Positions 14,464 through 45,541 are shown, numbered from the stretch's first letter. The stretch: 45,891 nucleotides of DNA from an uncultured Candidatus Saccharibacteria bacterium (GCA_964625905.1 CAZVBS010000001.1:1-45891), one strand, 5' to 3'. Translations and numbers: made by a program. Notes: a model not told the origin generated them from the letters alone.

Positions 14464-14468
14464 AAAGC

Positions 14469-28207: not shown

Positions 28208-28250
28208 TTTTTTTGAAGTTTAGTAAAGTGAATCGCTAAATTTAGAAGTT

Positions 28251-29761: not shown

Positions 29762-29815
29762 TTGCATTTTCATGTACATATAGTAGAGTAATGGCACTGC
29801 ATGGGCAGTTTTTTT
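29762..29815 (+). promoter_or_regulatory. Sigma70-like promoter of rpsL plus 5'-proximal hairpin and U-tract
   Basis: TTGCAT-16-TAGAGT, then ACTGC-ATGG-GCAGT plus T6 (29796-29815). Confidence 0.45.
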
Positions 29816-29834: not shown

Positions 29835-30242
29835 ATGTCAACAATTAATCAATTAGTTAGAAAAGCAAGGAAACGACCAACTACCAAATCAAAAGCGGTG
29901 GCTCTTACTCGTGGTTTTAATACATTAAAGAACAGGCCTACTAAGTACCCTTCACCATTCAAGAGAGGAGTATGTACTAAAGTAACAACAAAAACACCTA
30001 GAAAGCCAAACTCAGCTATTCGAAAGATTGCAAGAGTTCGACTTACAAACGGTATTGAAGTAACAGCATACATTCCAGGAATAGGACATAATCTTCAAGA
30101 GCATGCAGTTGTACTACTACGTGGAGGACGAGTAAAAGATATTAACGTACGTTACACTATTGTTCGAGGTAAGCTTGATGCTGAAGGAGTACAAGGGCGA
30201 AAGAGAAGCCGAAGCCGTTACGGTACTAAACTAGAAAAATAA
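29835..30242 (+). CDS. rpsL: 30S ribosomal protein S12
   Basis: STINQLVRK..., PNSAIRK, GGRVKD. Confidence 0.97.
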
Positions 30243-30245
30243 AAT

Positions 30246-30707
30246 ATGCGAAGACCACTTAAAAAGAAAAGAGAATTACAACCAGATCGTGTATACGATT
30301 CTGTTAATGTGTCTAAATTTATAAACTACGTTATGGAACGTGGTAAGAAAAATACAGCACGAAAGGTTGTATATAATACATTTTTAGAGTTAAAGAAAAG
30401 TGGAGACCCTGTTGAAATATTTGAAACAGCACTGCGTAATGTAGAACCTTCAATGGAGGTACGATCAAGGAGAGTTGGTGGAGCAAATTATCAAGTTCCT
30501 CGAGAAGTGCGAGCAGAAAGACGCCTATCACTTTCAATGCGTTGGATACTTGCAGCAGCTAAAGCTAAAAAAGGTACACCTATGCACAAACGTCTTGCAG
30601 AAGAGCTATTACTTGCGAGTAATAAAGAAGGAGATGCAGTGAAGCGTAGGATGAATACTCATAAGATGGCTGAGGCCAACAAGGCTTTTGCTCACTTTGC
30701 TTGGTAA
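30246..30707 (+). CDS. rpsG: 30S ribosomal protein S7
   Basis: Conserved S7 sequence ([37 protein letters not shown]). Confidence 0.97.
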
Positions 30708-30715
30708 AAAATTCC

Positions 30716-30819
30716 CAGAATTAAAGCACTACTTCGTTACTGCGAAAAAATGTCACTCGTCGTATGTTCATACGCCTCGTGACATTTTTTTCTTGTGCCT
30801 CGCACTGCAGTTAATTCTG
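30716..30819 (+). repeat. E2 nested-hairpin element
   Basis: Outer stem CAGAATTAA/TTAATTCTG, inner 12-bp stem AAAAAATGTCAC/GTGACATTTTTT, apex CGTATG/CATACG, loop strands AGCACTACTTCGTTACTGCG and TCTTGTGCCTCGCACTGCAG. Starts 8 nt after the rpsG stop. Confidence 0.6.
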
Positions 30820-31033
30820 AAAATTTTTATTTTTTCTATACGTCTCGCATTACATCTGAAATCTTTTAAAAATATTCGCAATACTAAAATGTATATCTCA
30901 CGACTTTTTTGTTTCTAGTCTGGTACTCCATTTCAGAATAAGAGTTCTTGGGAAGCTTTCTTTTTGTATAAAAAAGTGATATTAAGAGTGGTAGATAGAG
31001 TGTCCTTATTTCAATATGTAAGGGAGACTGCGT

Positions 31034-31702
31034 ATGAATAGCTTTCAAAAGTTATTGGTGTCGGTAATTGTTGCCGTAATCTTGAGTTCCTGTGCCCAGC
31101 GAGGCAGTGGATCAACATCTGGAGGACCGTCTGCTCTTATTAATGATGAAGTTGTTGTTTATGAAAGTTGTATGGGTGAAATACTTAACGCACGCGATAA
31201 AGAGCTTGAAGTTCCACACACGATAGCTTTCGTCAAAGATCTTGTAGGCGAAATGTTCTCGTGTGAAAATTTTCGCGGAGCTCCAGTTAAGTTTTTCGGA
31301 AAGAAAGTGCGTATTCAAGGTCGTTCAATTCATGCTGGTTACGGATATGCTCTAGCAGATCGAAAACAAGTCATTAGTGAGCTCCTTTCAAAAGAAAATT
31401 TTAAGGGGTATTACTACGATCCGCGTGGACGATTTAAGGTATCGATCAATCGAAGGCTTGATTATGTTCGCGCATATGATCGCACCGTGCCCACGTACAT
31501 AATTGTTGCGAATGTGAAATACATTGGAAAGCGTACAATTGGCGCACTTTCTGTGATTGATTTTTCACAGGAAGGTCGGGATTACACCGCGTTTCTGTGG
31601 ATCCATGGACTTGGGCTTACTCAAGAGAAAATTGTGTCGCGTTTTGAAAAGCTGCTCCGCTTTATTGCATCACCTTCTCAATTTAAGGTGGTACTGAAAT
31701 AA
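31034..31702 (+). CDS. Hypothetical lipoprotein (222 aa) inserted between rpsG and fusA
   Basis: Lipobox VILSSC after a hydrophobic h-region, GGGAG RBS 7 nt upstream, own terminator. No family recognised. Confidence 0.6.
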   Translation: MNSFQKLLVSVIVAVILSSCAQRGSGSTSGGPSALINDEVVVYESCMGEILNARDKELEVPHTIAFVKDLVGEMFSCENFRGAPVKFFGKKVRIQGRSIHAGYGYALADRKQVISELLSKENFKGYYYDPRGRFKVSINRRLDYVRAYDRTVPTYIIVANVKYIGKRTIGALSVIDFSQEGRDYTAFLWIHGLGLTQEKIVSRFEKLLRFIASPSQFKVVLK

Positions 31703-31707
31703 TAGGG

Positions 31708-31733
31708 CTCCTCCGTGTACGTACACGGAGGAG
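31708..31733 (+). terminator. Hairpin terminator of the lipoprotein gene
   Basis: Perfect palindrome CTCCTCCGTGTAC/GTACACGGAGGAG followed by TTTGTT. Confidence 0.65.
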
Positions 31734-31737
31734 TTTG

Positions 31738-31797
31738 TTGCATTTAAGGTGTTTGTACGGTATTCTACTTGCAACTGTGGCGCTTCCGCCATTTTTT
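31738..31797 (+). promoter_or_regulatory. Promoter of fusA plus 5'-proximal hairpin and U-tract
   Basis: TTGCAT-17-TATTCT, then TGGCG-CTTC-CGCCA plus T6 (31778-31797). Confidence 0.5.
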
Positions 31798-31832
31798 AGT
31801 TTAAATAAAAATAATCACACATATAAAATAGT

Positions 31833-33977
31833 ATGGAACGAGAATATCCCCTAGAAAGAGTACGTAACTTTGGAATTATAGCCCACATTGATGCAGGTAA
31901 GACCACTGTGTCTGAGCGTATTCTTTTTTATACAGGAGAAAGTCATAAGATAGGTGAGGTGCACGATGGAGAGACAGTAACCGACTGGATGGAGCAAGAG
32001 CGAGAGCGAGGTATCACTATTACCGCTGCCGCTATTTCTTGCTTGTGGAACAAGACAGACGAAGACACTGATGATAATTCTAAAAAATACAGTTTTAACA
32101 TTATAGATACTCCAGGACACATCGACTTTACTGTAGAAGTAAAACGCTCAATGAGCGTACTCGACGGAGCTATTGTTGTATTCGACGGTGTTTCAGGAGT
32201 AGAACCTCAGTCAGAAACTAACTGGCGATATGCAGACGAAGCCGGAGTGCCACGAATATGTTTCATTAACAAGCTTGACCGAACAGGAGCGAGTTTTGAG
32301 CGTTCATACGCAAGTATTCTCGATAGACTTTCACCAAATGCAGTACGACTTCAGATTCCAATAGGCGAGGAGACAGACCATAAAGGAGTAATAGACCTGC
32401 TTGCCATGAAAGGATATACATTTGACGGAGTAATGGGAAAGGATGTCATAAAAGGAGAGGTTCCAGAAAACCTTAAAGCAGATGCAGAGAAATATCGAGC
32501 AGAGCTTATAGAAAAAATAGTTGAACATGATGATGATCTTATGAATCTATACCTTGAAGGTAAAGAGATACCATATGAAGATTTAAAAAGAGTTCTGAGA
32601 GTAGCAATTCTTAAGAACGCTATCTTTCCAGTATATGCTGGTTCAGCACTAAAGAACAAAGGAGTTCAGTTGGTGCTCGACGGCGTTGTTGATTACTTAC
32701 CGTCACCAATGGACCTTCCGCCAGTAAAAGGAACAGACCCAAAAACAGGAGAAGAAATATTACGAAAGCCTTCAGATGATGAACCGTTTGCAGCGCTAGC
32801 ATTCAAGCTACAAACAGATCCATTTGTTGGTCAGCTTACATTCTTCCGTGTGTATTCAGGTACAGCAGAAGCTGGTTCATACATTTACAATGCATCAACG
32901 AAGAGTAAAGAACGACTCGGGCGAATTGTTCGCTTACAGGCTGATAAACGAGAAGAAATAAAGAAAGTATTTGCAGGAGAGATTGCAGCTGCAGTTGGAC
33001 TTAAAGATACAAAGACATCACACACACTTTGTGACGTAGATAATCCAATTATTCTTGAAGAAATTACATTCCCAGAGCCAGTTATATCTCTGCGTATTGA
33101 ACCTAAGACAAAAGCAGACCAAGAGAAGATGGGAATCGCACTCAATAAACTTTCTGACGAGGATCCAACATTTAAAGTGAGTTCAGATTCTGAAACCATG
33201 GAGACAGTAATATCAGGAATGGGAGAGCTTCACCTTGAGATTCTTGTTGACCGTATGAAGAGAGAGTTTAATGTAGAGGCAGATGTAGGAACACCACAAG
33301 TGTCTTACAAAGAAACTATTCAAGGTACATCAGAGGCTGAAATAAAATATATCAAACAGTCAGGTGGACGTGGTCAATATGGTCATGTGAAGATTAGGAT
33401 AAAGCCATTAGAAGAAATTGAAGAAGGTGCAAAGATTGCAAAGAACATTAAAAGAGATGATCATTTCGAATTTGTAAACTCAATTAAAGGAGGTGTTATT
33501 CCACAAGAGTATATTCCTGCTGTTGAAAAAGGAATTAAGGAAGCTATGGACAGAGGTATTCTTGCTGGATACAAAGCAGTTGATATTTCAGTAGAGCTTT
33601 ATGATGGTTCATATCACGATGTTGACTCATCAGAAATCGCATTCAAGATTGCTGGTTCTCAAGCATTTAAAGATGCAGCAAACAGAGCAAAGCCAGTGCT
33701 TCTAGAGCCAATTATGAAAGTAGAAGTAGTAACTCCTGAGAAATTCATGGGAGACATCAACGGAAACTTAAGCTCAAAGCGTGGGCAAGTTGAAAGTATG
33801 GAGGACAGAGGTGGCAACAAAGTGATTAACGCTAAAGTACCTCTTTCAGAAATGTTTGGATATACCACTACACTTCGATCAATGACAGAAGGACGAGCAA
33901 GCTCAACTATGGAGTTTGATCACTATGCAGTTGTTCCTCAAAATGTTGCAAAAGACATTATCGACGCTAGAAACTAG
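31833..33977 (+). CDS. fusA: Elongation factor G
   Basis: [18 protein letters not shown], full five-domain length. Confidence 0.97.
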
Positions 33978-34013
33978 AGTTTGTATCAATAAAATACACA
34001 CAAATATGAGAAT

Positions 34014-34111
34014 CATATTAACTCCTCGGCTCTGATATATAAAAGTAAAACTTTTATATATCACTCGCCCTACGTCACTAATAAACGCCAAGAGTACTCT
34101 TGGCGTTTATT
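34014..34111 (+). repeat. E6 structured element (homolog of E5)
   Basis: CATATTAACTCCTCGGCT, 13-bp hairpin GATATATAAAAGT/ACTTTTATATATC, CTCGCCCTACGTCACTAAT, hairpin AAACGCCAAGAGTACTCTTGGCGTTT. Confidence 0.6.
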
Positions 34112-34134
34112 AGTGTGTATTTGTGTCAAAATAC

Positions 34135-34190
34135 TTGACTTACGTATTCGTTTCTTGCTATTATAGCGTAATCGCATTGGGCGCTTTTTT
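34135..34190 (+). promoter_or_regulatory. Promoter of tuf with a weak hairpin/U-tract and a roughly 235-nt leader
   Basis: TTGACT-18-TATTAT, then AGCG..CGCT plus T6. Confidence 0.4.
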
Positions 34191-34401
34191 GTATGTGGGA
34201 TTCTTTTCTCTCGTATATTTAGATGTCTATGCTTAATTATCAATAAGTATTTTTAAGAAGTAAGTCACTTGTTCTCGTGCGTTTACTTTTCAAAGATACA
34301 CCCTTTATTAATCATTTTAGGACTTACTGAGTCGGATGCAGTTCTACGCAGTAGCAAAGAAATGTATCGATTAAGCAAGTTTTAATTAAATTAAAATTAT
34401 T

Positions 34402-35601
34402 ATGGCAGAAGAATTTGATCGTTCAAGACCACATATAAACGTAGGAACAATTGGTCACGTTGACCACGGAAAGACTACGCTTACAGCTGGTATCCTTCAC
34501 GTCCTTAACTTGATGGGAGGAGAATATGGTTCAAACGTTAAAGACGTTGACCAAATCGATAGCGCACCAGAAGAAAAAGAGCGAGGTATTACTATCGCAC
34601 TTTCTCACAATGAGTATTGGACACCAACACGTCACTACGCTCACATTGATGCTCCTGGTCACGCAGATTACATTAAAAACATGATTACTGGTGCCGCTCA
34701 AATGGATGGCGCAGTATTAGTTGTAGCAGCTTCAGATGGAGTTATGCCACAAACACAAGAGCATATATTGCTTGCAAAGCAGGTTGGAGTACCTAATATT
34801 ATCGTTTTCCTAAACAAAGTAGACCAAGTTGACGATAACGACTTGATCGACCTTGTTGAAGAAGAAGTTCGAGAACTTCTTACAAAATACGATTTTGATG
34901 GTGAAAATGCACCAATTATACGAGGTTCAGGGCTTAAAGCAATTGAGGCAACATCAGCTGATGATGAATGGGCACAGAAAATAACTGAGCTTATCAAAGC
35001 TATGGATGAATACTTCCCAATTCCAAAGCGTGAAACTGACAAGCCATTCCTTATGCCAATTGAAGACGTCTTCTCAATTGAAGGTCGTGGAACAGTAGTT
35101 ACAGGACGAATTGAAAGAGGTGTAGTTAAAGTTGGTGAAGAAATCGAAGTCGTTGGTATTAAAGATACAGTCAAGACAACAGTTACTGGTGTTGAGATGT
35201 TCAACAAACAACTTCAAGAAGGACAAGCTGGAGACAACGCAGGAATCCTTATTCGAGGAATCAAGAAAGAAGATATTCATCGAGGGCAAGTACTTGCTAA
35301 AGTAGGTTCAGTTACTCCTCATACAGAGTTTGAGGCTGAAGTATTTATTCTTAAGAAAGAAGAGGGTGGACGTCATACTCCATTCTTCACTGGATACAAG
35401 CCACAGTTCTACCTTGGAACAACAGATGTTACAGGAGATGTAACACTTGCAGAAGGAACAGAAATGGTTATGCCAGGAGATACAGTTACATTTAAAGTAA
35501 AGCTTGTAGGTCCTATCGCACTTGAAGAACAGCAACACTTTGCTATTCGAGAGGGAGGTAAGACTGTTGGAGCTGGAGTAGTTACAAAGATAGTCGCATA
35601 A
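34402..35601 (+). CDS. tuf: Elongation factor Tu
   Basis: [21 protein letters not shown]. Confidence 0.98.
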
Positions 35602-35677
35602 TATTTGTACGATTGTATAAAGTACTCATATAAAGTAAACGTGTGTGGTACAGTGTACTCACAAGAAAAACAGAACC

Positions 35678-36118
35678 ATGACAACTAAAGACACAAAGAA
35701 AGAATTAATAAAGGAAACTGAAGAAGTATCTTCTTCAGATAAGAAACCTGCAAAGAAAGTAGCGAAAAAGGCTGCGCCTAAAAAGGCAACCAAGAAAGCT
35801 ACTGGAGACGGAATCTCAAGATTACGTATTCGTGTGCGAGCATATGAACACAAACTTCTTGATGTATCTGTAAAGCAGATTATTGACACCGCACTTCGGT
35901 ATGATGCTGAAGTAGTAGGACCAACACCTCTTCCAATTGAAAGAAAGTTATATACTGTTAACCGTTCAAGTTTTGTACACAAAGATGCGCGAGAACAATT
36001 CGAGATGCGTGTACATAAGAGAATGATTGATATAATTAACCCAAATCAGAAAGTTGTTGAGTCCTTGACTAATCTTTCTTTGCCGTCGGGAGTGAACATC
36101 GACGTAAAAATGATGTAA
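35678..36118 (+). CDS. rpsJ: 30S ribosomal protein S10 with a Lys/Ala-rich N-terminal extension of about 45 aa
   Basis: The S10 core RLRIRVRAYEHKLLD...GVNIDVKMM is preceded by KKPAKKVAKKAAPKKATKKA. The ATG at 35678 is preferred over the track GTG at 35645. Confidence 0.93.
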   Translation: MTTKDTKKELIKETEEVSSSDKKPAKKVAKKAAPKKATKKATGDGISRLRIRVRAYEHKLLDVSVKQIIDTALRYDAEVVGPTPLPIERKLYTVNRSSFVHKDAREQFEMRVHKRMIDIINPNQKVVESLTNLSLPSGVNIDVKMM

Positions 36119-36120
36119 TC

Positions 36121-36241
36121 GCATTTCTAAAATTACTTCATCTACTTCGTCGTTAGCTCATAATATTTTCTTTGCCGTACTAATGTACGCCTCTGAAAAT
36201 ATTCTTCGCACTCCTTGTATCTAAAGCAATTTTAAAAATGC
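36121..36241 (+). repeat. E3 nested-hairpin element
   Basis: Outer 14-bp stem GCATTTCTAAAATT/AATTTTAAAAATGC (1 mismatch), inner stem AATATTTTC/GAAAATATT, apex CGTAC/GTACG, strands ..ATCTACTTCGTCGTTAG.. and ..CGCACTCCTTGTA... Starts 2 nt after the rpsJ stop. Confidence 0.6.
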
Positions 36242-36248
36242 TTGAAAC

Positions 36249-36272
36249 AAAAACCGCCTTACGGCGGTTTTT
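36249..36272 (+). terminator. Rho-independent terminator
   Basis: AAAAACCGCC-TTAC-GGCGGTTTTT. Confidence 0.8.
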
Positions 36273-36291
36273 GTAATTTTATGCGAAAAAG

Positions 36292-36435
36292 AGTATACTC
36301 TCACACCTATTTTACTACTGTGATTTTGTTGGGTTATTGATATTTTATTGAACTTCATTATTACACTTTTTTACTTTCACATTAAATCTTTTTATAAACC
36401 ACACAGTAGCAGTAAAACAGGTGTAGGGGTATACT
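36292..36435. repeat. Long imperfect inverted repeat upstream of the Zn-ribbon ORF
   Basis: Arms AGTATACTCTCACACCTATTTTACTACTGTG (36292-36322) and CACAGTAGCAGTAAAACAGGTGTAGGGGTATACT (36402-36435), spacer about 79 nt. Each arm carries a TATACT. Confidence 0.5.
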
Positions 36436-36475
36436 TTAATTAGATATTTAACTATATGATTTATAGGAGGCTGGC

Positions 36476-36733
36476 GTGGTTGAAAAATTATCACTTTATG
36501 AAGCTATTATTTTTTCAATGAAAAAGCACAAGCCAAATGAAGATGGAAGTTGCAAAACTGAAAGTTGCGACGGCATGGTCGTTGCCGAGGTTAATGGATT
36601 GTTTAGAGGAAATTATACCCACGGCACTCCTTTCTGTAGTAGATGTAAGAGATCATATATTTCTGCTGTTAATGTGTCTGTTATAGGCATAGAAGAATTT
36701 GAAAGATTAATGCGTACACCCATGACGATTTAA
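36476..36733 (+). CDS. Hypothetical 85-aa zinc-ribbon-like protein inserted between rpsJ and rplC
   Basis: GTG start 5 nt after AGGAGG (36465-36470). Cys pairs C-KTES-C and C-SR-C. Own terminator. Confidence 0.5.
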   Translation: MVEKLSLYEAIIFSMKKHKPNEDGSCKTESCDGMVVAEVNGLFRGNYTHGTPFCSRCKRSYISAVNVSVIGIEEFERLMRTPMTI

Positions 36734-36753
36734 CCGTACGTTTCCCTAACTAG

Positions 36754-36780
36754 CTCCGCACAATTTGGCGCGGAGTTTTT
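36754..36780 (+). terminator. Hairpin terminator
   Basis: CTCCGC..GCGGAG plus T5. Confidence 0.6.
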
Positions 36781-36786
36781 CTTTTC

Positions 36787-36814
36787 TTGCATTATTTAAT
36801 GACTCCTGTATACT
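36787..36814 (+). promoter_or_regulatory. Promoter of the rplC-rplB unit
   Basis: TTGCAT-16-TATACT. Confidence 0.5.
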
Positions 36815-36914
36815 CTCTTTTGTACTCGTTTTGTTTTGCTAGCTTTATTGGTTAGTTAAGGGGTAGCTACGTTCTCAGCAGAGAAGAACCTATGGCACGG
36901 AGATTTAATGAATC

Positions 36915-36938
36915 CGCGCTATTGAGCGCGATTTTTTT
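36915..36938 (+). promoter_or_regulatory. Attenuator-like hairpin and U-tract 12 nt before the rplC start
   Basis: CGCGCT-ATTG-AGCGCG, then A and T7. Confidence 0.5.
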
Positions 36939-36949
36939 ATACACACATT

Positions 36950-37579
36950 GTGAAATTCATTCTAGGAACAAAACAATACATGACTCAGGTCTTTGATGAA
37001 AAAGGTATGGCTTACCCTGCTACTGTTTTAGCTGCTGGACCTATTACCGTTATTCAAGTGAAAAGTACTGAAAAAGACGGATATGAATCTGTGCAAGTTG
37101 GATATAGTGAAAGGCACGAAAAAAATATAAACAAAGCACAGAAAGGTCATTTTAAAGATTTAGGACTATTTAGATACTTAAGAGAGTTTCGAGCAAAGAG
37201 CATCGGCAACGATGAATACAAAAGGGGAGACATTATTGATGTTTCAAAGTTTGAAGTCGGAGATATTGTAGAGATTTCAGCAATTTCAAAAGGTAAAGGA
37301 TTCCAAGGTGTTGTTAAGCGACACGGGTTTGCTGGGGGTCCTAGAACACACGGTAACAAACACCACGAGCGTACTCCGGGTTCTATTGGAGCTCAGGGTC
37401 CACAGCGTGTACTTAAGGGAGTGAGAATGGCAGGACGAATGGGAGCAGACCGTGTTACTGTGAAGAACCTTAAAGTTCTTCAGGTAGATAAAGAAAACAA
37501 TCAACTTGTGATCAAAGGAGCTGTACCAGGTCATCGTGGCACTTTTGTTGAGGTTAGAGTAATGCAAAAGGCAAAATAA
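36950..37579 (+). CDS. rplC: 50S ribosomal protein L3
   Basis: GTG start; ILGTKQYMTQVFDE, FQGVVKRHGF. Confidence 0.95.
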   Translation: MKFILGTKQYMTQVFDEKGMAYPATVLAAGPITVIQVKSTEKDGYESVQVGYSERHEKNINKAQKGHFKDLGLFRYLREFRAKSIGNDEYKRGDIIDVSKFEVGDIVEISAISKGKGFQGVVKRHGFAGGPRTHGNKHHERTPGSIGAQGPQRVLKGVRMAGRMGADRVTVKNLKVLQVDKENNQLVIKGAVPGHRGTFVEVRVMQKAK

Positions 37580-37589
37580 TTAAACAATT

Positions 37590-38372
37590 ATGGAAACTAA
37601 CGTATACAACCAAGAAGGAAAAGCTGTAAGTAAGGTAAATCTACCCGAAGGCATTTTCGGACTTAAATGGAATGCTGATTTAGTACATCAGGTTGTTGTT
37701 GGTTTTGAAGCTAATAAACGAACTCCAGTAGCTCACACAAAAGACAGAGGTGATGTTCGTGGTGGTGGTAAAAAACCATGGCAACAGAAAGGAACTGGAC
37801 GCGCACGAGTTGGTTCTTCACGTTCTCCTATCTGGAGAGGTGGAGGAATTACATTTGGTCCACGAAAAGACAAAGATTATTCAAAGAAGGTCAACAAAAA
37901 GATGAAGATTAAAGCCCTATACGTAGCGCTCTCACAGAAGATGCGTGACGGAGAGATACTTTTTGTTGAATCTCTTTCATTCTCTGATCCAAAGACCGCA
38001 AAAGCTAAGAGTGTTCTTTCTGCACTTGCGTCAGTTAAAGGTTTTGATACACTCTCAACAAAGAAGAAAAACTGCGCACTTATAGCTACATTTAAGAAAG
38101 ACGCTGTTACAGAAAAAAGTTTTAATAATATGGGTAATGTTGAGGTGGACGAAGTAAGGAACCTTAATGCAAGAGACCTTCTTCTACATAAATACATAAT
38201 TATTACTAATCCAGAAGAAACTATTACATTTTTTGGAAGTAAGCTAAAGTCTGTTTCAAGGACTATGAAAGACTCTAAAGATGAAAATGAGGTAAAGAAA
38301 GCGCCAACTAAAAAAACAACAGTAAAGAAAGCGCTTGCAAAAAAAGCGGCAACTAAGGTAGCAAAAAAATAA
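37590..38372 (+). CDS. rplD: 50S ribosomal protein L4 with a Lys-rich C-terminal extension
   Basis: GGGKKPWQQKGTGRARVGSSRSPIWRGGG. Tail KKAPTKKTTVKKALAKKAATKVAKK. Confidence 0.95.
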   Translation: METNVYNQEGKAVSKVNLPEGIFGLKWNADLVHQVVVGFEANKRTPVAHTKDRGDVRGGGKKPWQQKGTGRARVGSSRSPIWRGGGITFGPRKDKDYSKKVNKKMKIKALYVALSQKMRDGEILFVESLSFSDPKTAKAKSVLSALASVKGFDTLSTKKKNCALIATFKKDAVTEKSFNNMGNVEVDEVRNLNARDLLLHKYIIITNPEETITFFGSKLKSVSRTMKDSKDENEVKKAPTKKTTVKKALAKKAATKVAKK

Positions 38373-38373
38373 C

Positions 38374-38859
38374 ATGGCATTATTTCGATTAAAAAAAGAA
38401 GGAGAAGATAAAGGAAAAAACTCTTCCGAGGCGGTAGTTTCGATTCCGTCCGCAGACGGAATCGCGCCCGGAGGCGACGTTAAGAAACCAGAGAAGGTTA
38501 AAAACATTGATAAAAGTGCTGAAAAGAAAACAGACAAGAAAACTTCTTCAGATGTTCTTTCTCTTAATTACAGAAAAGATACAGCGTCAATTCTTAAAAA
38601 CCCTCGAGTGACTGAGAAAGCAACTATTATGTCTGAGAAAGGAGTGTATGTGTTTGATGTATCTGCACGAGCAACAAAAGCAGATGTTAGGGATGCAGTC
38701 AAAGAGCTCTATAAAGTGACTCCACGAAAGATAAATATGGTAAAAGTTCCCTCAAAACGAACAAGGGTACGTGGACAACAAAATAGGTTTGGAGTAAAGT
38801 CAGGTGGAAAGAAAGCGTATGTGTACGTAAAGAAGGGTGACACTATTGATATTGTATAG
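38374..38859 (+). CDS. rplW: 50S ribosomal protein L23 with an N-terminal extension of about 65 aa
   Basis: Core ILKNPRVTEKAT...KINMVKVPSKR begins near residue 70. Confidence 0.93.
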   Translation: MALFRLKKEGEDKGKNSSEAVVSIPSADGIAPGGDVKKPEKVKNIDKSAEKKTDKKTSSDVLSLNYRKDTASILKNPRVTEKATIMSEKGVYVFDVSARATKADVRDAVKELYKVTPRKINMVKVPSKRTRVRGQQNRFGVKSGGKKAYVYVKKGDTIDIV

Positions 38860-38876
38860 TTATTTTATTTTGAAGT

Positions 38877-39716
38877 ATGAAAAAATATAAACCAACAACA
38901 CCAGGACAAAGAGGAATGACAAGAGTAAGTTTTAAAAAACTTACGGCTTCTAGCCCATTCAAAAAACTAACCAAAGGAAGAAAGCGTCATGTTGGGCGAA
39001 ACAGTCAGGGGCGTATTACCACAAGGCATAAAGGTGGAGGACACAAGAGACTTTATCGTGATATTGATTTTCTTTTTAATAAGAAAGATATTCCTGCAAA
39101 GATTGAAACAATCGAGTATGACCCTAACCGAACAGCATTTATTGCACTTGTGCTATACGCTGACGGAGAACGTCGTTATATGCTTTTACCACAATCACTT
39201 GAGGTTGGAGATAAGGTGATTGTCTCAGAAAAGGCTCCACTTAAGCATGGAAACAGGTTAAGAATGAAGAATATACCCGTTGGTACGTTTGTATACAACA
39301 TTGAATTAAAGCCAGAAGGTGGATCAAAACTAGCTCGTTCTGCTGGAAACTACGCTGAGGTCATTGGACAAGATGCTGGTTACACACTTCTAAAGATGCC
39401 TTCAAGTGAAGTTCGAAAAGTTCTTGAAAATTCCTGGGCATCTATTGGTGAAGTTTCAAATGAAGAACATAAGCTTGTAAACATCGGAAAGGCTGGGCGA
39501 AACAGGTGGCTCGGTAAACGACCTACTGTACGTGGAGCAGCCATGAACGCTGTTGATCACCCTCATGGAGGTGGAGAAGGTAAAGCAGGACGTGGACACC
39601 GAAGGCAACGTACTAAGTGGGGTAAGCCTTCTGGAAAGGGTCAAAAGACAAGAAAAACAAAGAAATACTCAAACACACTTATCGTAAGGCGTAGGAAAGT
39701 AGGTAAACGAAAGTAA
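38877..39716 (+). CDS. rplB: 50S ribosomal protein L2
   Basis: GRNSQGRITTRHKGGGHKRLYR, HPHGGGEG. Confidence 0.97.
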   Translation: MKKYKPTTPGQRGMTRVSFKKLTASSPFKKLTKGRKRHVGRNSQGRITTRHKGGGHKRLYRDIDFLFNKKDIPAKIETIEYDPNRTAFIALVLYADGERRYMLLPQSLEVGDKVIVSEKAPLKHGNRLRMKNIPVGTFVYNIELKPEGGSKLARSAGNYAEVIGQDAGYTLLKMPSSEVRKVLENSWASIGEVSNEEHKLVNIGKAGRNRWLGKRPTVRGAAMNAVDHPHGGGEGKAGRGHRRQRTKWGKPSGKGQKTRKTKKYSNTLIVRRRKVGKRK

Positions 39717-39743
39717 AAATTTAGAATTGTTTCACTATAAGTA

Positions 39744-39782
39744 ACAAGAAAGGTCACTACACAGTGACCTTTCTTGTTTTTG
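39744..39782 (+). terminator. Rho-independent terminator after rplB
   Basis: 15-bp stem ACAAGAAAGGTCACT/AGTGACCTTTCTTGT followed by a T-run. Confidence 0.8.
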
Positions 39783-39844
39783 TATTACAATTATATTTAT
39801 CTAATATATAGTAACTCTGTTAATTATTATATGGAGTAAAGTAC

Positions 39845-40126
39845 ATGACTCAACAAACTCAGTTAAGTCAGTATATGTGGCGGGTTGAATTTGTGCACAG
39901 AAACGGCTTAAATAATACCTATAAGTTATTCAGTAAGAGTGCTGGAGATGTGTTTTTAACTATTTCAACGAATCAACGCTTTAACGTTGGTGATAAAATA
40001 AGACTCTTTGCTGTAAATACTAACGAACATGGCAGGCTTGCGCGCAAGGGTATCGAGATAGTTTGGAATACAAAAAAAGTATCAAAAGGACCTGTTCCAG
40101 CTGAGATACGTAAAGGGTACATATAA
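39845..40126 (+). CDS. Hypothetical 93-aa protein inserted between rplB and rpsS
   Basis: GGAG 8 nt upstream. Bracketed by two terminators. No recognisable motif. Confidence 0.5.
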   Translation: MTQQTQLSQYMWRVEFVHRNGLNNTYKLFSKSAGDVFLTISTNQRFNVGDKIRLFAVNTNEHGRLARKGIEIVWNTKKVSKGPVPAEIRKGYI

Positions 40127-40157
40127 GGCAGGATTCGTTTGTTACGAACCCTGCCTT
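40125..40157 (+). terminator. Hairpin terminator
   Basis: AAGGCAGG-ATTCGT..ACGAAC-CCTGCCTT. Confidence 0.65.
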
Positions 40158-40162
40158 ATAAT

Positions 40163-40217
40163 TTGACATAAGCCTTCGTTTTAGCTATTATGTACGCCAA
40201 GCTCGAGAGAGCTTTTT
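40163..40217 (+). promoter_or_regulatory. Consensus promoter of the rpsS-rplE unit plus 5'-proximal hairpin and U-tract
   Basis: TTGACA-17-TATTAT, then AAGCTC-GAGA-GAGCTT plus TTT (40199-40217). Confidence 0.55.
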
Positions 40218-40313
40218 ATTTACGACATAGAACAAGAGGCGTAAGAAAGTATATTTTTTTAAGCATTCGAGTCGAGGAGTAAATATCGAAGATATTTTGA
40301 TTTAATATTATAT

Positions 40314-40649
40314 ATGGCACGATCCATCAAAAAAGGACCATACGTAGACCCAAGACTTCAAAGGAAGATTGAGGGCAAAAAACCAAATGATACAGGTGTT
40401 GTTAAGACGTGGGCTAGACGAAGTCAAATTTCTCCTGATATGGTAGGTTTTACTTTTGGAGTCCATAACGGTAAAGATCATATTGAGGTTTTTGTTACAG
40501 ATGAAATGGTTGGACACCGCTTAGGAGAGTTTTCACCTACTAAGAAGTTCCACCGACACGGAGGTAAAATGCAGAAAGAATTAGAACAACGACAGAAAGA
40601 AGCTGAGATTACAGCAGCAAAGGCAGCTAAAGTAGCAGCCGATAAATAA
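40314..40649 (+). CDS. rpsS: 30S ribosomal protein S19 with a C-terminal extension
   Basis: [23 protein letters not shown]. Extra tail [25 protein letters not shown]. Confidence 0.95.
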
Positions 40650-40660
40650 TATATATACTT

Positions 40661-40987
40661 ATGAAAGCACGACTTAAAAATTATAGACAATCTCCTCGCA
40701 AAGTTAGACTAGTTGCTAATCTTGTGCGCGGTAAAAGCGTTGTGCGTGCGTTAACAGCGCTTTCATTTTTAGATAAAAAGTCAGCAGCTCCAATTAAGAA
40801 ATTAATAGAGTCAGCAGTCTCAAACGCAGAAAACCAAGGTTCAAACAAAGAAGACTTAGCAGTTTCAGATATTCAAGTAGACGAAGGAATGTCATTTATA
40901 CGCTTTCGTGCAAGAGCTAGAGGACGAGCTGCTCCCATCAGACGACGCTCAAGTCATATCAATATAAACCTAAAAGCTAAAAGCTAG
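40661..40987 (+). CDS. rplV: 50S ribosomal protein L22
   Basis: SPRKVRLVANLVRGKSV, RARGRAAPIRRRSSHI. Confidence 0.95.
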   Translation: MKARLKNYRQSPRKVRLVANLVRGKSVVRALTALSFLDKKSAAPIKKLIESAVSNAENQGSNKEDLAVSDIQVDEGMSFIRFRARARGRAAPIRRRSSHININLKAKS

Positions 40988-40998
40988 AACACACTTAC

Positions 40999-41664
40999 AT
41001 GACACATAATGTACACCCATATTCACATAGACTTGGAATACTTCGCGACTGGAAGTCACGATGGTTCTCTTCAAACCCACGAGTATATCGTGAGGGAATT
41101 AAGCTTGATGTAAACATTCGAGAGTATTTAACAAGAGAATTACGTGGCAAATACGTAAGCTCTATTGAAATGGAACGAAATCAAAACATGCTCCGTGTCA
41201 TTATTAAGACCACTCGACCAGGAATTATAATTGGACGAAGCGGTGAAGGTAGTATAAAACTCAAGGCTGGAGTAGAGAAGATGGCAAAGAAGTTAAGAAT
41301 AGAAGAGCTACCAGAAATCAAGATAGATATTGAGGAGGTTCGTTCTCCAGAATCAAATGCAGCAATTGTTTCTCAAATGATTGCAGAAGGTCTTGAAAAA
41401 CGTATGCCATTTCGTAGAGTACTAAAACAGACAGCGGATAAAGTAATGGCAAATCGAGACGTAGAGGGTGTACGGATCTCTGTTGCAGGACGACTTGGTG
41501 GAACAGAAATGGCTAGACAAGAACAGATAAAGAAGGGACGTGTTCCACTTCAGACATTTAGAGCAGATATTGATTTTGCACGAGAAAAAGCGTATCTTCC
41601 ATATGGAGTTATTGGTATCAAAGTATGGATATATAAAGGAGACGTATTTGAAACTAATGATTAG
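40999..41664 (+). CDS. rpsC: 30S ribosomal protein S3
   Basis: HPYSHRLGILRDWKSRWF, KH domain, GRLGGTEMAR. Confidence 0.96.
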   Translation: MTHNVHPYSHRLGILRDWKSRWFSSNPRVYREGIKLDVNIREYLTRELRGKYVSSIEMERNQNMLRVIIKTTRPGIIIGRSGEGSIKLKAGVEKMAKKLRIEELPEIKIDIEEVRSPESNAAIVSQMIAEGLEKRMPFRRVLKQTADKVMANRDVEGVRISVAGRLGGTEMARQEQIKKGRVPLQTFRADIDFAREKAYLPYGVIGIKVWIYKGDVFETND

Positions 41665-41669
41665 GGCTT

Positions 41670-42092
41670 ATGTTATTTCCAAAGAAAGTAAAATACAGAA
41701 AATGGCAAACACGCCGTTCAAATAAAAACAAAGTTCACAACGCTACAAGAGGTGTGACAGTATCATTTGGTTCTCATGGACTTAAGGCTATGACAATGGA
41801 GAGAATCACATCAAATCAAATTGAGGCAGCAAGGCGTGTTATCAGTCGTACTCTAGGAAAGACAGGTAAGACATGGATACGCGTTTTCCCAGATAGGCCA
41901 ATTACAGCTAAGGCAGCAGAAGTTGGTATGGGTAAGGGAAAAGGTGATTTAAAGCACTATGTTGCAGAAATCCTTCCCGGTCGTATTATATTTGAGATCG
42001 ATGGAGTTACAGATGATGTAGCTAAAGAAGCCCTTAGAAAAGCTGGAGCAAAGCTACCGCTTAAGACAAAGATAGTAAGTAGGCATACATAA
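41670..42092 (+). CDS. rplP: 50S ribosomal protein L16
   Basis: PKKVKYRKWQ, MGKGKGD. Confidence 0.96.
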   Translation: MLFPKKVKYRKWQTRRSNKNKVHNATRGVTVSFGSHGLKAMTMERITSNQIEAARRVISRTLGKTGKTWIRVFPDRPITAKAAEVGMGKGKGDLKHYVAEILPGRIIFEIDGVTDDVAKEALRKAGAKLPLKTKIVSRHT

Positions 42093-42113
42093 TACAGATA
42101 AAATAAAAGGATT

Positions 42114-42302
42114 ATGAAAAAAATATCAGCAATCAAAGGAAAAAGTAGTAAAGATTTAATAAAGACACTCAACGAGAAGCGTGAAGAGTTAAGGAAGTTT
42201 CGTTTTGGTATTTCAGGTAGTAAGACCCGTAATGTAAAAGAAGGAAGAAATACACGTAAGGAAGTAGCTAAGGTTCTTACAGAACTTAATTCTAGAATAT
42301 AA
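42114..42302 (+). CDS. rpmC: 50S ribosomal protein L29
   Basis: Size, operon position and the L..L.E.R.ELRKFRF pattern. Confidence 0.9.
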   Translation: MKKISAIKGKSSKDLIKTLNEKREELRKFRFGISGSKTRNVKEGRNTRKEVAKVLTELNSRI

Positions 42303-42310
42303 ACAAAAAT

Positions 42311-42595
42311 ATGACTGACAAACAAACAAAAGAAAATACAAAACTTGAAAGCTCTACTCCTAAGACTAAAAAAGTATTTAGTGGTACTGTGGTATCAAAT
42401 AAAATGAAAGATACTATTGTTGTTATGGTATCTCGGTATACAAAGCACCCAAAATACAAGAAATTTTTAAAGCGTTCAAAGAAATTTATGACGCATGATG
42501 AAGGAAACACGAAAGAGATTGGAGATAAGGTGAATATAGAAGAGACACTTCCAATGTCAAAAAACAAGAGATTTAAAGTAGTCGACAGTAAGTAA
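42311..42595 (+). CDS. rpsQ: 30S ribosomal protein S17
   Basis: GTVVSNKMKDTIVVMV..HPKYKK..KKFMTHDE. Confidence 0.93.
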   Translation: MTDKQTKENTKLESSTPKTKKVFSGTVVSNKMKDTIVVMVSRYTKHPKYKKFLKRSKKFMTHDEGNTKEIGDKVNIEETLPMSKNKRFKVVDSK

Positions 42596-42633
42596 ATATT
42601 AGTTTATAGTAACCACTCATTATCTAAAGCTAT

Positions 42634-43005
42634 ATGATTCAGCCACAAACAACAGTTAAAATAACCGACAACTCAGGCGCAAAAATAGGCGTTGTCTTCA
42701 AGGTACTTGGTGGTTCTAAGCGTAGATATGCTCGTATCGGAGATATAGTAGTACTTTCAGTAAAGTCAGTTGAGCCACGAAAGATGGTGAAAAAGAAAGA
42801 AGTAGTTCGTGGTATTGTTGTTCGTCAAAAACAACCATTTAGACGAAAAGACGGTTCATATATTCGCTTTGATGAAAACGCAGTTGTGCTTGTTGAAAAA
42901 GAAAAGAAAGAGCCACGTGCAGGACGAATCTTTGGCCCAATCCCTCGAGAAATTGCAGAAGCAGGATACCAGAAGATTGTTTCACTAGCGCCAGAGGTGG
43001 TATAG
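42634..43005 (+). CDS. rplN: 50S ribosomal protein L14
   Basis: MIQPQT...DNSGAK...RFDENA. Confidence 0.97.
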
Positions 43006-43018
43006 AAAAATTTATAAT

Positions 43019-43327
43019 ATGAAGATTAAAAAAGGCGACAAAGTAATAGTAATTTCAGGAAAAGACCGAGGTAAGAAAGGTAAGGTTCTTCGAGCGCTTC
43101 CAAAAGAAGACCGTGTGATAGTCGAAGGTGTTAATGTTGTTAAACGACACCAGAAAGCTACATCACAACGTCAAAGCGGACAGATTATAGATAAGACTCT
43201 TCCAATACATGTCTCAAATGTAATGATTGTTGACCCAAAAACAGGAAAACGAACACGAATTGGTATAAAAAGAGTAAATGGTAAGTATACTCGTATAGCA
43301 AAAAAGAGTAATACAAAAATTTCATAA
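43019..43327 (+). CDS. rplX: 50S ribosomal protein L24
   Basis: [25 protein letters not shown] motif. Confidence 0.95.
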
Positions 43328-43332
43328 TAAGT

Positions 43333-43872
43333 ATGTCATTAACAAAAGAAAAACAGAATAATATTTTTGACTCTATAAAAGAGAAGTTAAACTACACAAA
43401 TGTATCGCAGTCACCTAAGATTAATAAGGTTACTGTGTCTGTTGGAGTTGGATCAATAAAAGATAAAAAGAAAATAGAAACAATTATTGATAGACTTACA
43501 AAAATAACGGGACAAAAGCCTTCTGCTCGTCCTGCAAAGAAATCTATCGCTACATTTAAGCTTAGAGAAGGAGATATAATTGGATATCAGGTAACACTGC
43601 GTGGTCCACGTATGTATGATTTTCTTGATAAGCTTATTCATGTTGCACTTCCACGAACTCGTGACTTCAGAGGTATCAAACTTTCATCAATCGACGAAAT
43701 GGGTAATATATCTATTGGCATCAAAGAACACACTATATTCCCAGAGACTTCAGGCGAAGAGTTAAGAGATGTGTTTGGAATGAGTGTTACTATTACCACT
43801 TCAGCAGTGACTCGAGAAGAGACTGAAGCTTTGCTTCGCGGCGTACAATTCCCCCTACAAAAAGCAGAGTAG
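43333..43872 (+). CDS. rplE: 50S ribosomal protein L5
   Basis: KSIATFKLREG, LPRTRDFRG, FPE. Confidence 0.96.
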   Translation: MSLTKEKQNNIFDSIKEKLNYTNVSQSPKINKVTVSVGVGSIKDKKKIETIIDRLTKITGQKPSARPAKKSIATFKLREGDIIGYQVTLRGPRMYDFLDKLIHVALPRTRDFRGIKLSSIDEMGNISIGIKEHTIFPETSGEELRDVFGMSVTITTSAVTREETEALLRGVQFPLQKAE

Positions 43873-43873
43873 T

Positions 43874-43994
43874 CAAACACTTAAAAACAATGCGCTACTT
43901 CGTTGTACATCGAAACATTTTAACGCCGTACCTTGAGTACGGCTTTTAAAATGTTTCTTGCACACCTCGTACCACATTTGTTTTTTAGTGTTTG
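43874..43994 (+). repeat. E4 nested-hairpin element
   Basis: Outer 17-bp stem CAAACACTTAAAAACAA/TTGTTTTTTAGTGTTTG (1 mismatch), inner perfect 12-bp stem GAAACATTTTAA/TTAAAATGTTTC, apex GCCGTAC/GTACGGC, strands TGCGCTACTTCGTTGTACATC and TTGCACACCTCGTACCACAT. Starts 1 nt after the rplE stop. Confidence 0.65.
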
Positions 43995-44025
43995 AATGAT
44001 ATTAAAAACAACCTTTTGGTTTTTT

Positions 44026-44034
44026 TGATATACT
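44026..44034 (+). promoter_or_regulatory. Extended -10 promoter (TGaTATACT) 7 nt before the CDPS ATG, implying a leaderless or near-leaderless mRNA
   Basis: TGATATACT at 44026-44034. ATG at 44042. No SD sequence. Confidence 0.4.
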
Positions 44035-44041
44035 TTTAAAT

Positions 44042-44755
44042 ATGAAATATTTTAACGTAACACAGGCGGAAATTGAAAAGAAACTCTTCAATATCTTTAT
44101 TGGTATTAGTCTGGGGAATAAATTGTTAACACCTGAATTAGTAAAGAAATATGTTAAATGGGCTCATAAAAATACTAAAGATAACGCAATTATCCTTATT
44201 GCAAATGACATAGATACTGTTAATTGGGAGATCTTTAATGGGTTAAGTCACGAAGAAGCTTTAAAGAAAGTTGAACAGAAAGGATACGGGATTTCAGGCA
44301 TGTTTGATAAAGCTGTTCGTACACTAGCAAAAGAAGAAAGTGACCCAAGTTATATATCAGATGTGCATATTGTATTTTGGAATGATATCAAAAATGAAGG
44401 GTACGATCATTTAAGAGAAATACTTGATGAAGAATATAAAACAAATAATAAATTTAGAGAAAAGGTGTTGTGTTTTGTAGATAAATACATCGAGTTCAGA
44501 GATGTTGATGTCTCTGAAGAAGATAAAGATAAGCTCGCTGGTTATATTATAAGCGAATTACCAACTCTCTTAGGTGGAGTTTTATGGAATAACACTTTAT
44601 ATAATCTTATTCTTTATCCAACATATGTAGATAGTGGAATGAGTCAATTCGTTTTAGATATACGAGGAGGTAAATATTTCGATTCTTCAAAACTTCTCTT
44701 GAGACAGCTCAATACTCTTGTGGAAGATTATCTGGAAAAGCCCAAGTTATCCTGA
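44042..44755 (+). CDS. Putative tRNA-dependent cyclodipeptide synthase (CDPS, XYP-type)
   Basis: 237 aa. FIGIS23LGN26 (compare AlbC LIGIS37AGN40), Y168IISE172LP (compare Y178VLAE182AP) and LY192P193 (Y202/P203) occur in the right order and spacing. Confidence 0.65.
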   Translation: MKYFNVTQAEIEKKLFNIFIGISLGNKLLTPELVKKYVKWAHKNTKDNAIILIANDIDTVNWEIFNGLSHEEALKKVEQKGYGISGMFDKAVRTLAKEESDPSYISDVHIVFWNDIKNEGYDHLREILDEEYKTNNKFREKVLCFVDKYIEFRDVDVSEEDKDKLAGYIISELPTLLGGVLWNNTLYNLILYPTYVDSGMSQFVLDIRGGKYFDSSKLLLRQLNTLVEDYLEKPKLS

Positions 44756-44790
44756 AAAATAAGTCTATATAGACTAGTAAACAACCATTT

Positions 44791-44838
44791 CAAGCCATTT
44801 TAAATGCCCCAGGTGGTTGGGGCATTTAAAATGGCTTG
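44791..44838 (+). terminator. Long hairpin terminator after the CDPS gene
   Basis: 21-bp perfect stem CAAGCCATTTTAAATGCCCCA/TGGGGCATTTAAAATGGCTTG followed by TTTTG. Confidence 0.75.
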
Positions 44839-44885
44839 TTTTGTGGCAAAAGTTGCTTAAAACCCTTTTAGAACAAGAGTTTTAT

Positions 44886-44941
44886 TTGACTTTAGGCGCT
44901 TCAACTGATAATATGTGCCAAGCGTTTCAAAGCGCTTTTTT
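44886..44941 (+). promoter_or_regulatory. Promoter of the rpsN-rpsH-rplF unit plus 5'-proximal hairpin and U-tract
   Basis: TTGACT-17-TAATAT, then AAGCG-TTTCAAAG-CGCTT plus T4 (44920-44941). Confidence 0.5.
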
Positions 44942-44960
44942 AATTAGCTATATATAATTC

Positions 44961-45146
44961 ATGGCAAAGAAATCAGTAATAGCTCGGTCACAAAAGACCC
45001 CAAAGTTTAAGTCACGTGTTGTGCGACGATGTTTTCGTTGTGGACGCGTTCGTGGCTATATGAGGGACTTTGATCTTTGTCGAATATGTTTTAGAGAACA
45101 AGCAAACGACGGAAATTTACCAGGAATCAAAAAAGCATCATGGTAA
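44961..45146 (+). CDS. rpsN: 30S ribosomal protein S14, zinc-binding type Z
   Basis: 61 aa with CFRCGR...CRICFRE. Confidence 0.96.
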
Positions 45147-45535
45147 CAGATACAATAGGAGATTTAATAATAAGACTTAAAAATGCATCCGCAGTCAAAA
45201 AGGATGTAGTTAGTGCACCTTACTCAAAATTACGATTTGCAGTTGCACAATCACTTCAGAAGATTGGATATATTAAATCAGTAAACAAGAAAGGTAAAAA
45301 AGTTCAAAAGACTATTGAGATTGAATTATCTTACGATAAAGATAACAAATCAGTTATTACTGATGTTAAGCGTGTGTCTACTCCCGGACGACGAATTTAC
45401 TATAGTTCAAAAGATATTCAGCCAGTAAAATATGGAAAAGGTTCATTAATTCTTTCAACACCAAAAGGTATTTTGACAGACAAGGAAGCTAAAAAAGAAA
45501 ACGTTGGAGGAGAGGTATTATTTAAAATTTGGTAA
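45140..45535 (+). CDS. rpsH: 30S ribosomal protein S8
   Basis: [29 protein letters not shown]. Overlaps rpsN by 7 nt. Confidence 0.96.
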
Positions 45536-45541
45536 ACATAT

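Follow-up and report, generated by a model that had tools for sequence, protein, structure and literature searches.

The str-S10-spc row of ribosomal genes is a textbook case of a gene order frozen across bacteria. The nearest published description of what we report here concerns the same cluster in Gammaproteobacteria and Bacilli, where small insertions lie at operon borders, mostly at rpoBC|str and str|S10: a few unrelated genes separate concatenated ribosomal operons, particular branches show repeated events, and single genes are exchanged while their neighbours stay undisturbed (Brandis 2021, PMC8046335). We analysed the row in a 45,891-nucleotide (nt) stretch of DNA (the window; GCA_964625905.1 CAZVBS010000001.1:1-45891) from an uncultured Candidatus Saccharibacteria bacterium, a member of the Patescibacteria (candidate phyla radiation, CPR). 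Four cargo genes interrupt it: a lipoprotein gene between rpsG and fusA (C1), a gene for a four-cysteine protein between rpsJ and rplC (C2), a gene for a protein of 93 amino acids (aa) between rplB and rpsS (C3) and a cyclodipeptide synthase (CDPS) gene between rplE and rpsN (C4). As in the published cases, these are unrelated genes placed between collinear cluster genes and missing from the outgroup arrangement. Unlike those cases, two of the junctions (hereafter seams), rplB|rpsS and rplE|rpsN, fall within the classical S10 and spc operons, and the seams are fixed across a taxonomic order, with conserved internal promoters and leaders and with resident families specific to a slot. We consider it probable that these are old, lineage-wide seams between separately promoted ribosomal blocks, which serve as slots for accessory genes turned over by homologous recombination, and not the work of one mobile cassette.

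The window makes up contig C1 of a metagenome-assembled genome (MAG) of 687 kb, 73 contigs and 36% GC. A gene map built from the listing of open reading frames (ORFs), Pfam matches and a tblastn map (Table 1) agreed with a first-pass annotation of the window on the gene order from rpsL to rplF and on the coordinates of all four inserts. That annotation had read the repeated succession of hairpin element, cargo, terminator and promoter as a recurrent insertion mechanism rather than four accidents, and had proposed that the same junctions be compared in relatives. We compared the clusters of 20 genomes of the same order (6 of the same genus and 3 of the same family) and 20 from other classes of the phylum. 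Within the order, gaps are variable and their cargo heterogeneous, and length variation is limited to five seams (rpsG|fusA, fusA|tuf, rpsJ|rplC, rplB|rpsS and rplE|rpsN; 10–6310 nt), whereas the remaining junctions have medians of at most 42 nt and almost never reach 150 nt. The median gap at rplB|rpsS is 505 nt in the order against 9 nt in the other classes, and that at rplE|rpsN is 214 nt against 12 nt; both are tight in 17–20 of the 20 other-class genomes, and these two seams are specific to the order. The fifth seam, fusA|tuf (34076–34164), went beyond the four annotated at first; in the window it holds a terminator and a promoter but no ORF, and in relatives it is the most variable of all (265–6310 nt), next to a tuf|rpsJ junction that is tight in every relative. 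Seam cargo elsewhere in the order includes Sigma70_r4, YbjN, NUDIX, acyltransferase, CYTH, GGDEF, amidase, type IV pilin and GIY-YIG genes. The idea of recurrence thus stands, in that the same junctions have been filled, emptied and refilled with unrelated genes across the order, but a mobile unit is not supported.

Each of the four inserts is followed by a sigma-70-like promoter located where the first-pass annotation had placed it. A plain scan for the promoter consensus found no enrichment in the region (44 sites, 48 expected), and the significance of these promoters therefore rests on their conservation across relatives. Upstream of rpsS, the order shares TTTGACA-N17-TAnTAT followed by CCAAGCTC-loop-GAGCTTTTT, and upstream of rpsN it shares TTGACTTTA...GATAnTAT followed by GCGTTTCAAAGCGCTTTTT; both motifs are present even where the gap is only 55–120 nt and has no ORF, and promoters and leaders are kept whatever the gap contains, at gap sizes from 55 to 2738 nt. 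A strict pattern (TTGAC[AT]-N16-18-TAnnnT, at most 200 nt upstream of the gene) was found before rpsS in 13 of 17 order relatives and before rpsN in 12 of 16, and before neither gene in any of the 20 genomes of other classes; before block-internal genes it was absent, save for one stray rpmC match in a single relative. At fusA, the TTGCAT motif is found family-wide together with a GTGGC...GCCAC hairpin. Given that the rpsS and rpsN promoters and hairpins are conserved with the downstream ribosomal genes regardless of gap content, they are older than the cargo, and what had been called restart promoters are ancient parts of the ribosomal blocks that were not carried in by the inserts. On these sequence grounds, the insert positions coincide with block borders defined by the conserved promoter motifs.

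A second conserved feature of the block heads is structured 5′ leaders. In E. coli, the S10 leader mediates attenuation by L4. Here, similarly, a promoter-proximal hairpin with a U-tract heads each block, and a conserved leader of about 135 nt before rplC has a terminator-like hairpin just ahead of the start codon; the differences are that the leaders precede rplC, rpsS and rpsN rather than rpsJ and rplN, and that these candidates have no Rfam match. The rplC leader is kept in the family and beyond; its core helix covaries, and covariation is seen at 6 of 13 consensus pairs. It is a candidate attenuator of the L3/L4 ribosomal-protein block. It contains GTAGCTAYGT, a hairpin, then G(N)ACCAATGGCA and, some 20 nt ahead of the start codon, a terminator-like hairpin with a T-run; pairing of the ATGGC segment with the 5′ arm of that terminator, possible in several relatives, would form an anti-terminator. 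A short GC hairpin with a T-run also lies within about 5–10 nt of the −10 box of every block promoter (29796–29809, 31777–31792, 40199–40214 and 44920–44937). Those of rpsS and rpsN keep their sequence throughout the order, and such hairpins could act as 5′-end stabilizers or promoter-proximal attenuators. No Rfam family matched the leaders, these hairpins or the hairpin elements described below, at either gathering or E-value thresholds.

Folding likewise bore out a strong hairpin 3′ of each of the four inserts (−13 to −38 kcal/mol; Table 1), although U-tracts are mediocre 3′ of the C3 and C1 hairpins. The region has 27 terminator-like sites, compared with 10.1 ± 3.5 in shuffled sequences. 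Some of these precede cargo, and C2 and C3 would need promoters of their own because both sit behind an upstream terminator. The spacer element and terminator of fusA|tuf (34014–34115) recur as partial copies at C1:5799–5874, C3:26648–26698 and C10:15692–15723 (contig coordinates), a second small repeat family of terminator-like palindromes.

The four cargo genes differ in history. Homologues of C1, which encodes a protein with a signal peptide and lipobox, were found in five relatives and on four independent metagenome contigs, all between rpsG and fusA and none elsewhere. Their pairwise identity is 24–39% and does not track species relatedness: the allele of the sister genome (L001) is 26% identical, although its rpsG and fusA are 95% and 99% identical, and the seam of that genome also holds a gene for a 165-aa membrane protein, whereas more distant contigs (flanks 91–94%) carry alleles of 61–63% in collinear DNA. 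The C3 family is similarly confined. A full HMMER scan of 1.84 billion representatives yielded three true members and no more, each of them located between rplB and rpsS; its five other matches were giant repeat proteins (MucBP, Ig I-set, tectonin, PPC/Rib and one lacking any domain that passes its Pfam cut-off) and were judged to be spurious sums of weak matches, because those families are mutually unrelated. Confinement of the C1 and C3 families to their own junctions argues that they are old residents rather than arrivals, and both appear from their sequences to be fast-evolving families confined to one slot. C1 to C3 had no match in PHROGs or NCBIfam, and C1 had none in Pfam either. AlphaFold models of C1 (predicted local distance difference test, pLDDT, 64.5) and C3 (pLDDT 80) gave no significant fold match in the PDB (best E values 0.054 and 0.74, respectively; template modelling score, TM, below 0.45).

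By contrast with these residents, C4 and C2 are recent arrivals by sequence comparison. The CDPS call made at first pass holds, with matches to PF16715 (39.6 bits, 6e-10; cut-off 27) and TIGR04539 (54.2 bits, 1.4e-14; cut-off 45) and to PDB entry 7qau (E 5.7e-16 over residues 9–217). In the last alignment, GISLGN pairs with AISLGN and YIISELP with YILEELP, the YP motif is common to both, and the catalytic GxSxGN serine and the downstream YxxxE residues are present. Homologues at 70–72% occur in two other Patescibacteria (L021 and L022), away from ribosomal genes and with homology limited to the coding sequence; the best relatives are MAGs labelled 'Candidatus Saccharibacteria' and 'Candidatus Paceibacteria'. 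In the sister genome, the CDPS copy has lost its 5′ third. The single homologue of C2 lies at the same seam of that genome (37% identity, four of four cysteines kept), and word-index searches of 5.8 billion proteins with C2, and of proteins with C3, returned only the queries themselves. No paralogue of any cargo gene was found elsewhere in the genome. Base composition and codon usage, which the first-pass annotation had wanted compared between cargo and flanking genes, proved native to the genome, with no sign of foreign origin: GC is 0.422 for C1 and 0.315 for the CDPS gene against a genome value of 0.368 ± 0.038, and all four inserts are within about two standard deviations (s.d.) of the genome in GC, GC at third codon positions (GC3) and codon usage, only the codon usage of C1 being about 2 s.d. 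off.

At the rplB|rpsS seam, a plus-strand ORF of 86–121 aa occurs in nearly every genome of the family. A second small-protein family of this size, which we call 'RTYLY' after its signature (W-x-G...GG-x-[YF]D-x-E...FVF...RTY[LV]Y at the C terminus), is present in six genomes of three genera (L001–L009), and most other genomes of the taxonomic family have it at this seam in place of C3. Its homology to C3 was considered and not established (hmmsearch E 0.06; hhalign probability 0.9%). In another relative (L019, G022), the 2738-nt gap at this seam holds two type IV pilin-like genes, genes for small membrane proteins and one for a stand-alone GIY-YIG nuclease, the last of which hints that selfish endonucleases use the seam too.

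Three of the four inserts are preceded, as had been noted, by a nested hairpin (element E; E2 after rpsG, E3 after rpsJ and E4 after rplE), which a covariance model built on four copies scores at 117–125 bits. The element is about 134 nt long, with conserved internal-loop strands (CTTCGT... / ...CCTCGAAC) and stems that are free to vary and covary; compensatory changes affect 26 of the 37 base pairs in the alignment of four copies, and fold z-scores are −5.6 to −8.7. Its relation to the cargo is loose. The 687-kb genome has 12 copies at 58 bits or more. In 11 of them the element touches or overlaps, to within 6 nt, the stop codon of an ORF in the same orientation, and some copies stand at junctions that have no cargo (pilB|pilC, secY|adk and murJ|lepA). 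No copy is found at the C3 seam. After rpsG, E is conserved in L001, L007, L010, L045 and L046; three families of the order have it there, and in one of them (L010) nothing else occupies the gap; after rplE it recurs at the same place in the sister genome; and in a genome of another class (L036) it follows rplC, rplW and rpsC. Because E is absent from the C3 seam and present at cargo-free junctions, it is independent of the cargo, and we read it from these sequences as a phylum-wide element of its own that follows stop codons.

The E. coli repetitive extragenic palindromic (REP) sequences and bacterial interspersed mosaic elements (BIMEs) and the Rickettsia palindromic elements are intergenic palindromic elements. 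E resembles them in being a multi-copy, intergenic, imperfect palindrome with a family-wide architecture, and resembles REP-like elements in lying just 3′ of stop codons, co-oriented with the upstream gene and often within operons. It differs in that its copies have a common architecture and internal loop rather than a common stem sequence, in having no Rfam match and in that no RAYT gene is flanked by it. Probably, E is REP-like and acts on the 3′ end of the messenger RNA, on stability or as a partial terminator. Two Y1_Tnp (HUH, IS200/RAYT-like) ORFs of 217–223 aa are encoded in this genome (G000; contig coordinates C15:5670–5921 and C23:10134–10370) and are possible mobilizers of palindromic elements; neither contig has an E match.

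Traces of exchange were found along the cluster. Homology between the window and the sister genome ends at 30821 (the end of E2), 36280 (after E3 and its terminator) and 39719 (the rplB stop codon), and resumes at the downstream promoters (31752, 36761 and 40161). The two genomes share tracts of perfect identity of 1025 nt in fusA (32292–33316) and of 416 nt from the 3′ end of the CDPS gene to the 5′ end of rpsN (44610–45025), set in surroundings that are 78–93% identical (L001/L023 (G003)). These tracts suggest recent recombination between lineages, with assembly mosaicism less likely. Divergence at fourfold sites is mosaic along the cluster (0.14–0.47), and the fusA tree is incongruent with those of neighbouring genes, which suggests that whole fusA alleles have been exchanged. 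In fusA, the window groups with L001 and L006 at 83–99%, and L002 and L005 are 91% identical to each other and 74–75% to the first group; tuf and rpsG lack this split among L001–L008 and the window. Identity tracts, breakpoints and mosaic divergence together point to homologous recombination through conserved ribosomal genes as the likely mechanism.

Taken together, these data lead us to propose that the row in this order comprises at least six separately promoted blocks (rpsL-rpsG, fusA, tuf-rpsJ, rplC-rplB, rpsS-rplE and rpsN onward). Each block would open with a conserved sigma-70-type promoter of its own and, behind it, a short 5′ hairpin with a U-tract or, at rplC, the longer structured leader. 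The stretch from the stop codon of a block to the next promoter would be the only site that tolerates added DNA, and the seams would act as permissive slots because insertion elsewhere would uncouple translation or cut a gene from its promoter. Genes that settle there would need a terminator of their own, insulating the promoter of the next block, and the CDPS gene is probably transcribed by read-through from rplE across E4. Slot content would be turned over by homologous recombination, with the highly conserved flanking ribosomal genes as homology arms, so that occupants would be a mixture of old, fast-evolving residents (the C1 and C3 families) and recent imports (CDPS and C2). E would be a neighbour of the cargo and not its vehicle, a separate genome-wide element placed right after stop codons. 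Several points weigh against this proposal. Its promoters, terminators and six units are predicted from sequence and conservation; codon bias in fusA and tuf could partly explain the mosaic of synonymous divergence; the identity tracts come from MAGs, for which assembly mosaicism is formally possible; an insertion mechanism linked to E would likewise leave breakpoints at its 3′ edge; and the confinement of C1 and C3 to one seam each fits a functional tie to neighbouring genes equally well. More tentatively, and with a good deal less confidence than in the slots themselves, we suggest that the order rebuilt the superoperon into fixed sub-operons whose seams form a standing array of exchangeable slots traded between diverged species, each with a private resident family (a surface lipoprotein, and a small basic beta protein with a possible tie to the ribosome), and that E may have first opened some of them.

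An alternative that we think improbable is a site-specific cassette system, in which E or another border element is the recombinase or transposase site that delivers cargo and terminator next to ribosomal stop codons. Three of the four cargo genes do lie just 3′ of E, homology with the sister genome breaks off where E2 ends and where E3 and its terminator end, the deletion in the CDPS gene of that genome stops at the 3′ edge of E4, and the copies in L036 have common stems, as expected of young mobile copies; the genome also has the two Y1 transposase-like ORFs and, on other contigs (C24 and C52), three tyrosine recombinases (PF00589 matches). Yet E is missing from the C3 seam, at least nine copies have no cargo (including the junctions named above in this genome, in L010 and in L036), and families of the order with no E match at all still have large cargo at rplB|rpsS (for example, L014 and L019). 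No recombinase gene was found in the window or near the region, the Y1 genes are not flanked by E, and when all eight cargo-flanking segments and the fusA|tuf spacer were compared with the genome by blastn, no repeat common to the cargo borders emerged, the right-hand ones included. The comparison with integron gene cassettes runs the same way. Single-gene units of unrelated function are arrayed at fixed positions in both, but here no integrase adjoins the array, border repeats of the attC kind are missing (E is one-sided only, and at three of four seams), each cargo gene comes with a terminator of its own and essential genes stand between the slots. With promoters conserved alongside the downstream genes and with C1 and C3 confined to their seams, the repeated mobile unit of element, cargo, terminator and promoter put forward by the first-pass annotation is not supported.

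Somewhat less improbable, but still doubtful in our judgement, is that the inserts belong to the translation apparatus or its regulation as lineage-specific components and stay in the cluster for co-expression, the C3 and 'RTYLY' proteins, for instance, being ribosome-associated. The seam-confined families, the small ORF at rplB|rpsS in nearly every genome of the family, the high isoelectric points (pI; 10.4 for C3 and 7.8–10.7 for 'RTYLY') and the native composition would all fit. A secreted lipoprotein with alleles up to 74% different between sister genomes is unlike a ribosome component, however, and C3 and 'RTYLY' are not demonstrably homologous; terminators appear to set each insert apart, so that it would not be co-transcribed, CDPS and C2 arrived recently, with the CDPS gene already decaying in the sister genome, and unrelated enzymes occupy the same seams in other families of the order. 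That mis-assembly of the metagenome bin placed foreign fragments in the ribosomal cluster is very improbable: although the genome is a MAG of many contigs and assembly mosaicism might in principle account for the identity tracts with another MAG, more than 20 independent genomes and independent JGI, ENA and Logan metagenome contigs show the same seams, promoters and resident families, and the cargo is native in composition.

The slot reading, which we prefer, means that a row held to be frozen is broken here inside two classical operons, at breaks that are fixed in an order and have their own promoter and leader, and where accessory genes are gained and swapped. It yields a testable model in which streamlined, host-dependent bacteria of about 0.7 Mb anchor a flexible set of genes (for surface lipoproteins, pilins, signalling enzymes and a cyclodipeptide synthase) in their most conserved and most recombination-competent DNA. 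It also brings out three uncatalogued RNA or DNA elements, namely the E post-stop element, the promoter-proximal hairpin/U-tract leaders and the rplC leader, and a caution for annotators and phylogenomic pipelines, as the ribosomal marker block is mosaic in these lineages.

Table 1. Ribosomal units, cargo genes, E elements and predicted signals (window coordinates unless contigs are named; CM, covariance model; energies in kcal/mol).
Feature	Position	Strand	Evidence and remarks
Unit 1: rpsL 29835-30242, rpsG 30246-30707	29835-30707	+	ORFs, tblastn map
Unit 2: fusA	31833-33977	+	ORFs, tblastn map
Unit 3: tuf 34402-35601, rpsJ 35678-36118	34402-36118	+	ORFs, Pfam, tblastn map
Unit 4: rplC, rplD, rplW, rplB	36950-39716	+	ORFs, Pfam, tblastn map
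Unit 5: rpsS (40314-40649), rplV, rpsC, rplP, rpmC, rpsQ, rplN, rplX, rplE	40314-43872	+	ORFs, Pfam, tblastn map
Unit 6: rpsN (44961-45146), rpsH, rplF	44961-45889	+	ORFs, tblastn map; leaves window at end
C1, 222-aa lipoprotein	31034-31702	+	signal peptide, lipobox, conserved Cys46/Cys77
C2, 85-aa four-Cys (Zn-ribbon-like) protein	36476-36733	+	C-x4-C...C-x2-C
C3, 93-aa basic all-beta protein	39845-40126	+	pI 10.4; AlphaFold2 pLDDT 80, seven strands
C4, cyclodipeptide synthase	44042-44755	+	Pfam, TIGR, PDB matches
E2, nested hairpin abutting rpsG stop	30704-30835	+	CM 117.5 bits; fold z -6.05
E3, after rpsJ	36116-36250	+	CM 125.3 bits
E4, abutting rplE stop	43870-44002	+	CM 122.2 bits; fold z -8.65
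Other E copies in window	14466-14599; 28122-28256 (-)		
Further E copies	contigs C7, C11, C14, C22, C26, C36, C38		
C1 terminator hairpin	31705-31736	+	terminator scan; -23.3, z -5.5
C2 terminator	~36752-36779	+	-13.1, z -2.4
C3 terminator	40124-40158	+	terminator scan, folding; -20.5, z -6.7
CDPS terminator	44791-44838	+	-37.6, z -6.6
Terminator upstream of C2, after E3	36247-36274	+	-18.8, z -5.6
Terminator directly after rplB, upstream of C3	39743-39778	+	-23.6, z -7.1
fusA|tuf terminator	34076-34115	+	-30.4, z -8.3
fusA|tuf promoter TTGACT-18-TATTAT	34135-34164	+	
fusA promoter TTGCAT-17-TATTCT	31738-31766	+	sequence; motif kept in genus and family
fusA 5′ hairpin with T-run	31777-31792	+	
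rplC promoter TTGCAT-16-TATACT	36787-36814	+	
rplC structured leader, ~135 nt	36815-36949	+	closing hairpin with T-run 36915-36930
rpsS promoter TTGACA-17-TATTAT	40163-40191	+	
rpsS 5′ hairpin AAGCTCgagaGAGCTT with T-run	40199-40214	+	
rpsN promoter TTGACT-17-TAATAT	44886-44914	+	
rpsN 5′ hairpin with T-run	44920-44937	+	

Several ribosomal proteins of the row have Lys/Ala-rich extensions (S10, L23, L4 and S19; 35678–35812, 38374–38570 and within other ribosomal genes). L23 has 161 aa, and its Pfam domain starts only at residue 73; S10 has about 45 additional N-terminal residues. The true span of rpsJ is about 35678–36118, the ORF as listed from a GTG at 35645 bearing a Lys-rich N-terminal extension.

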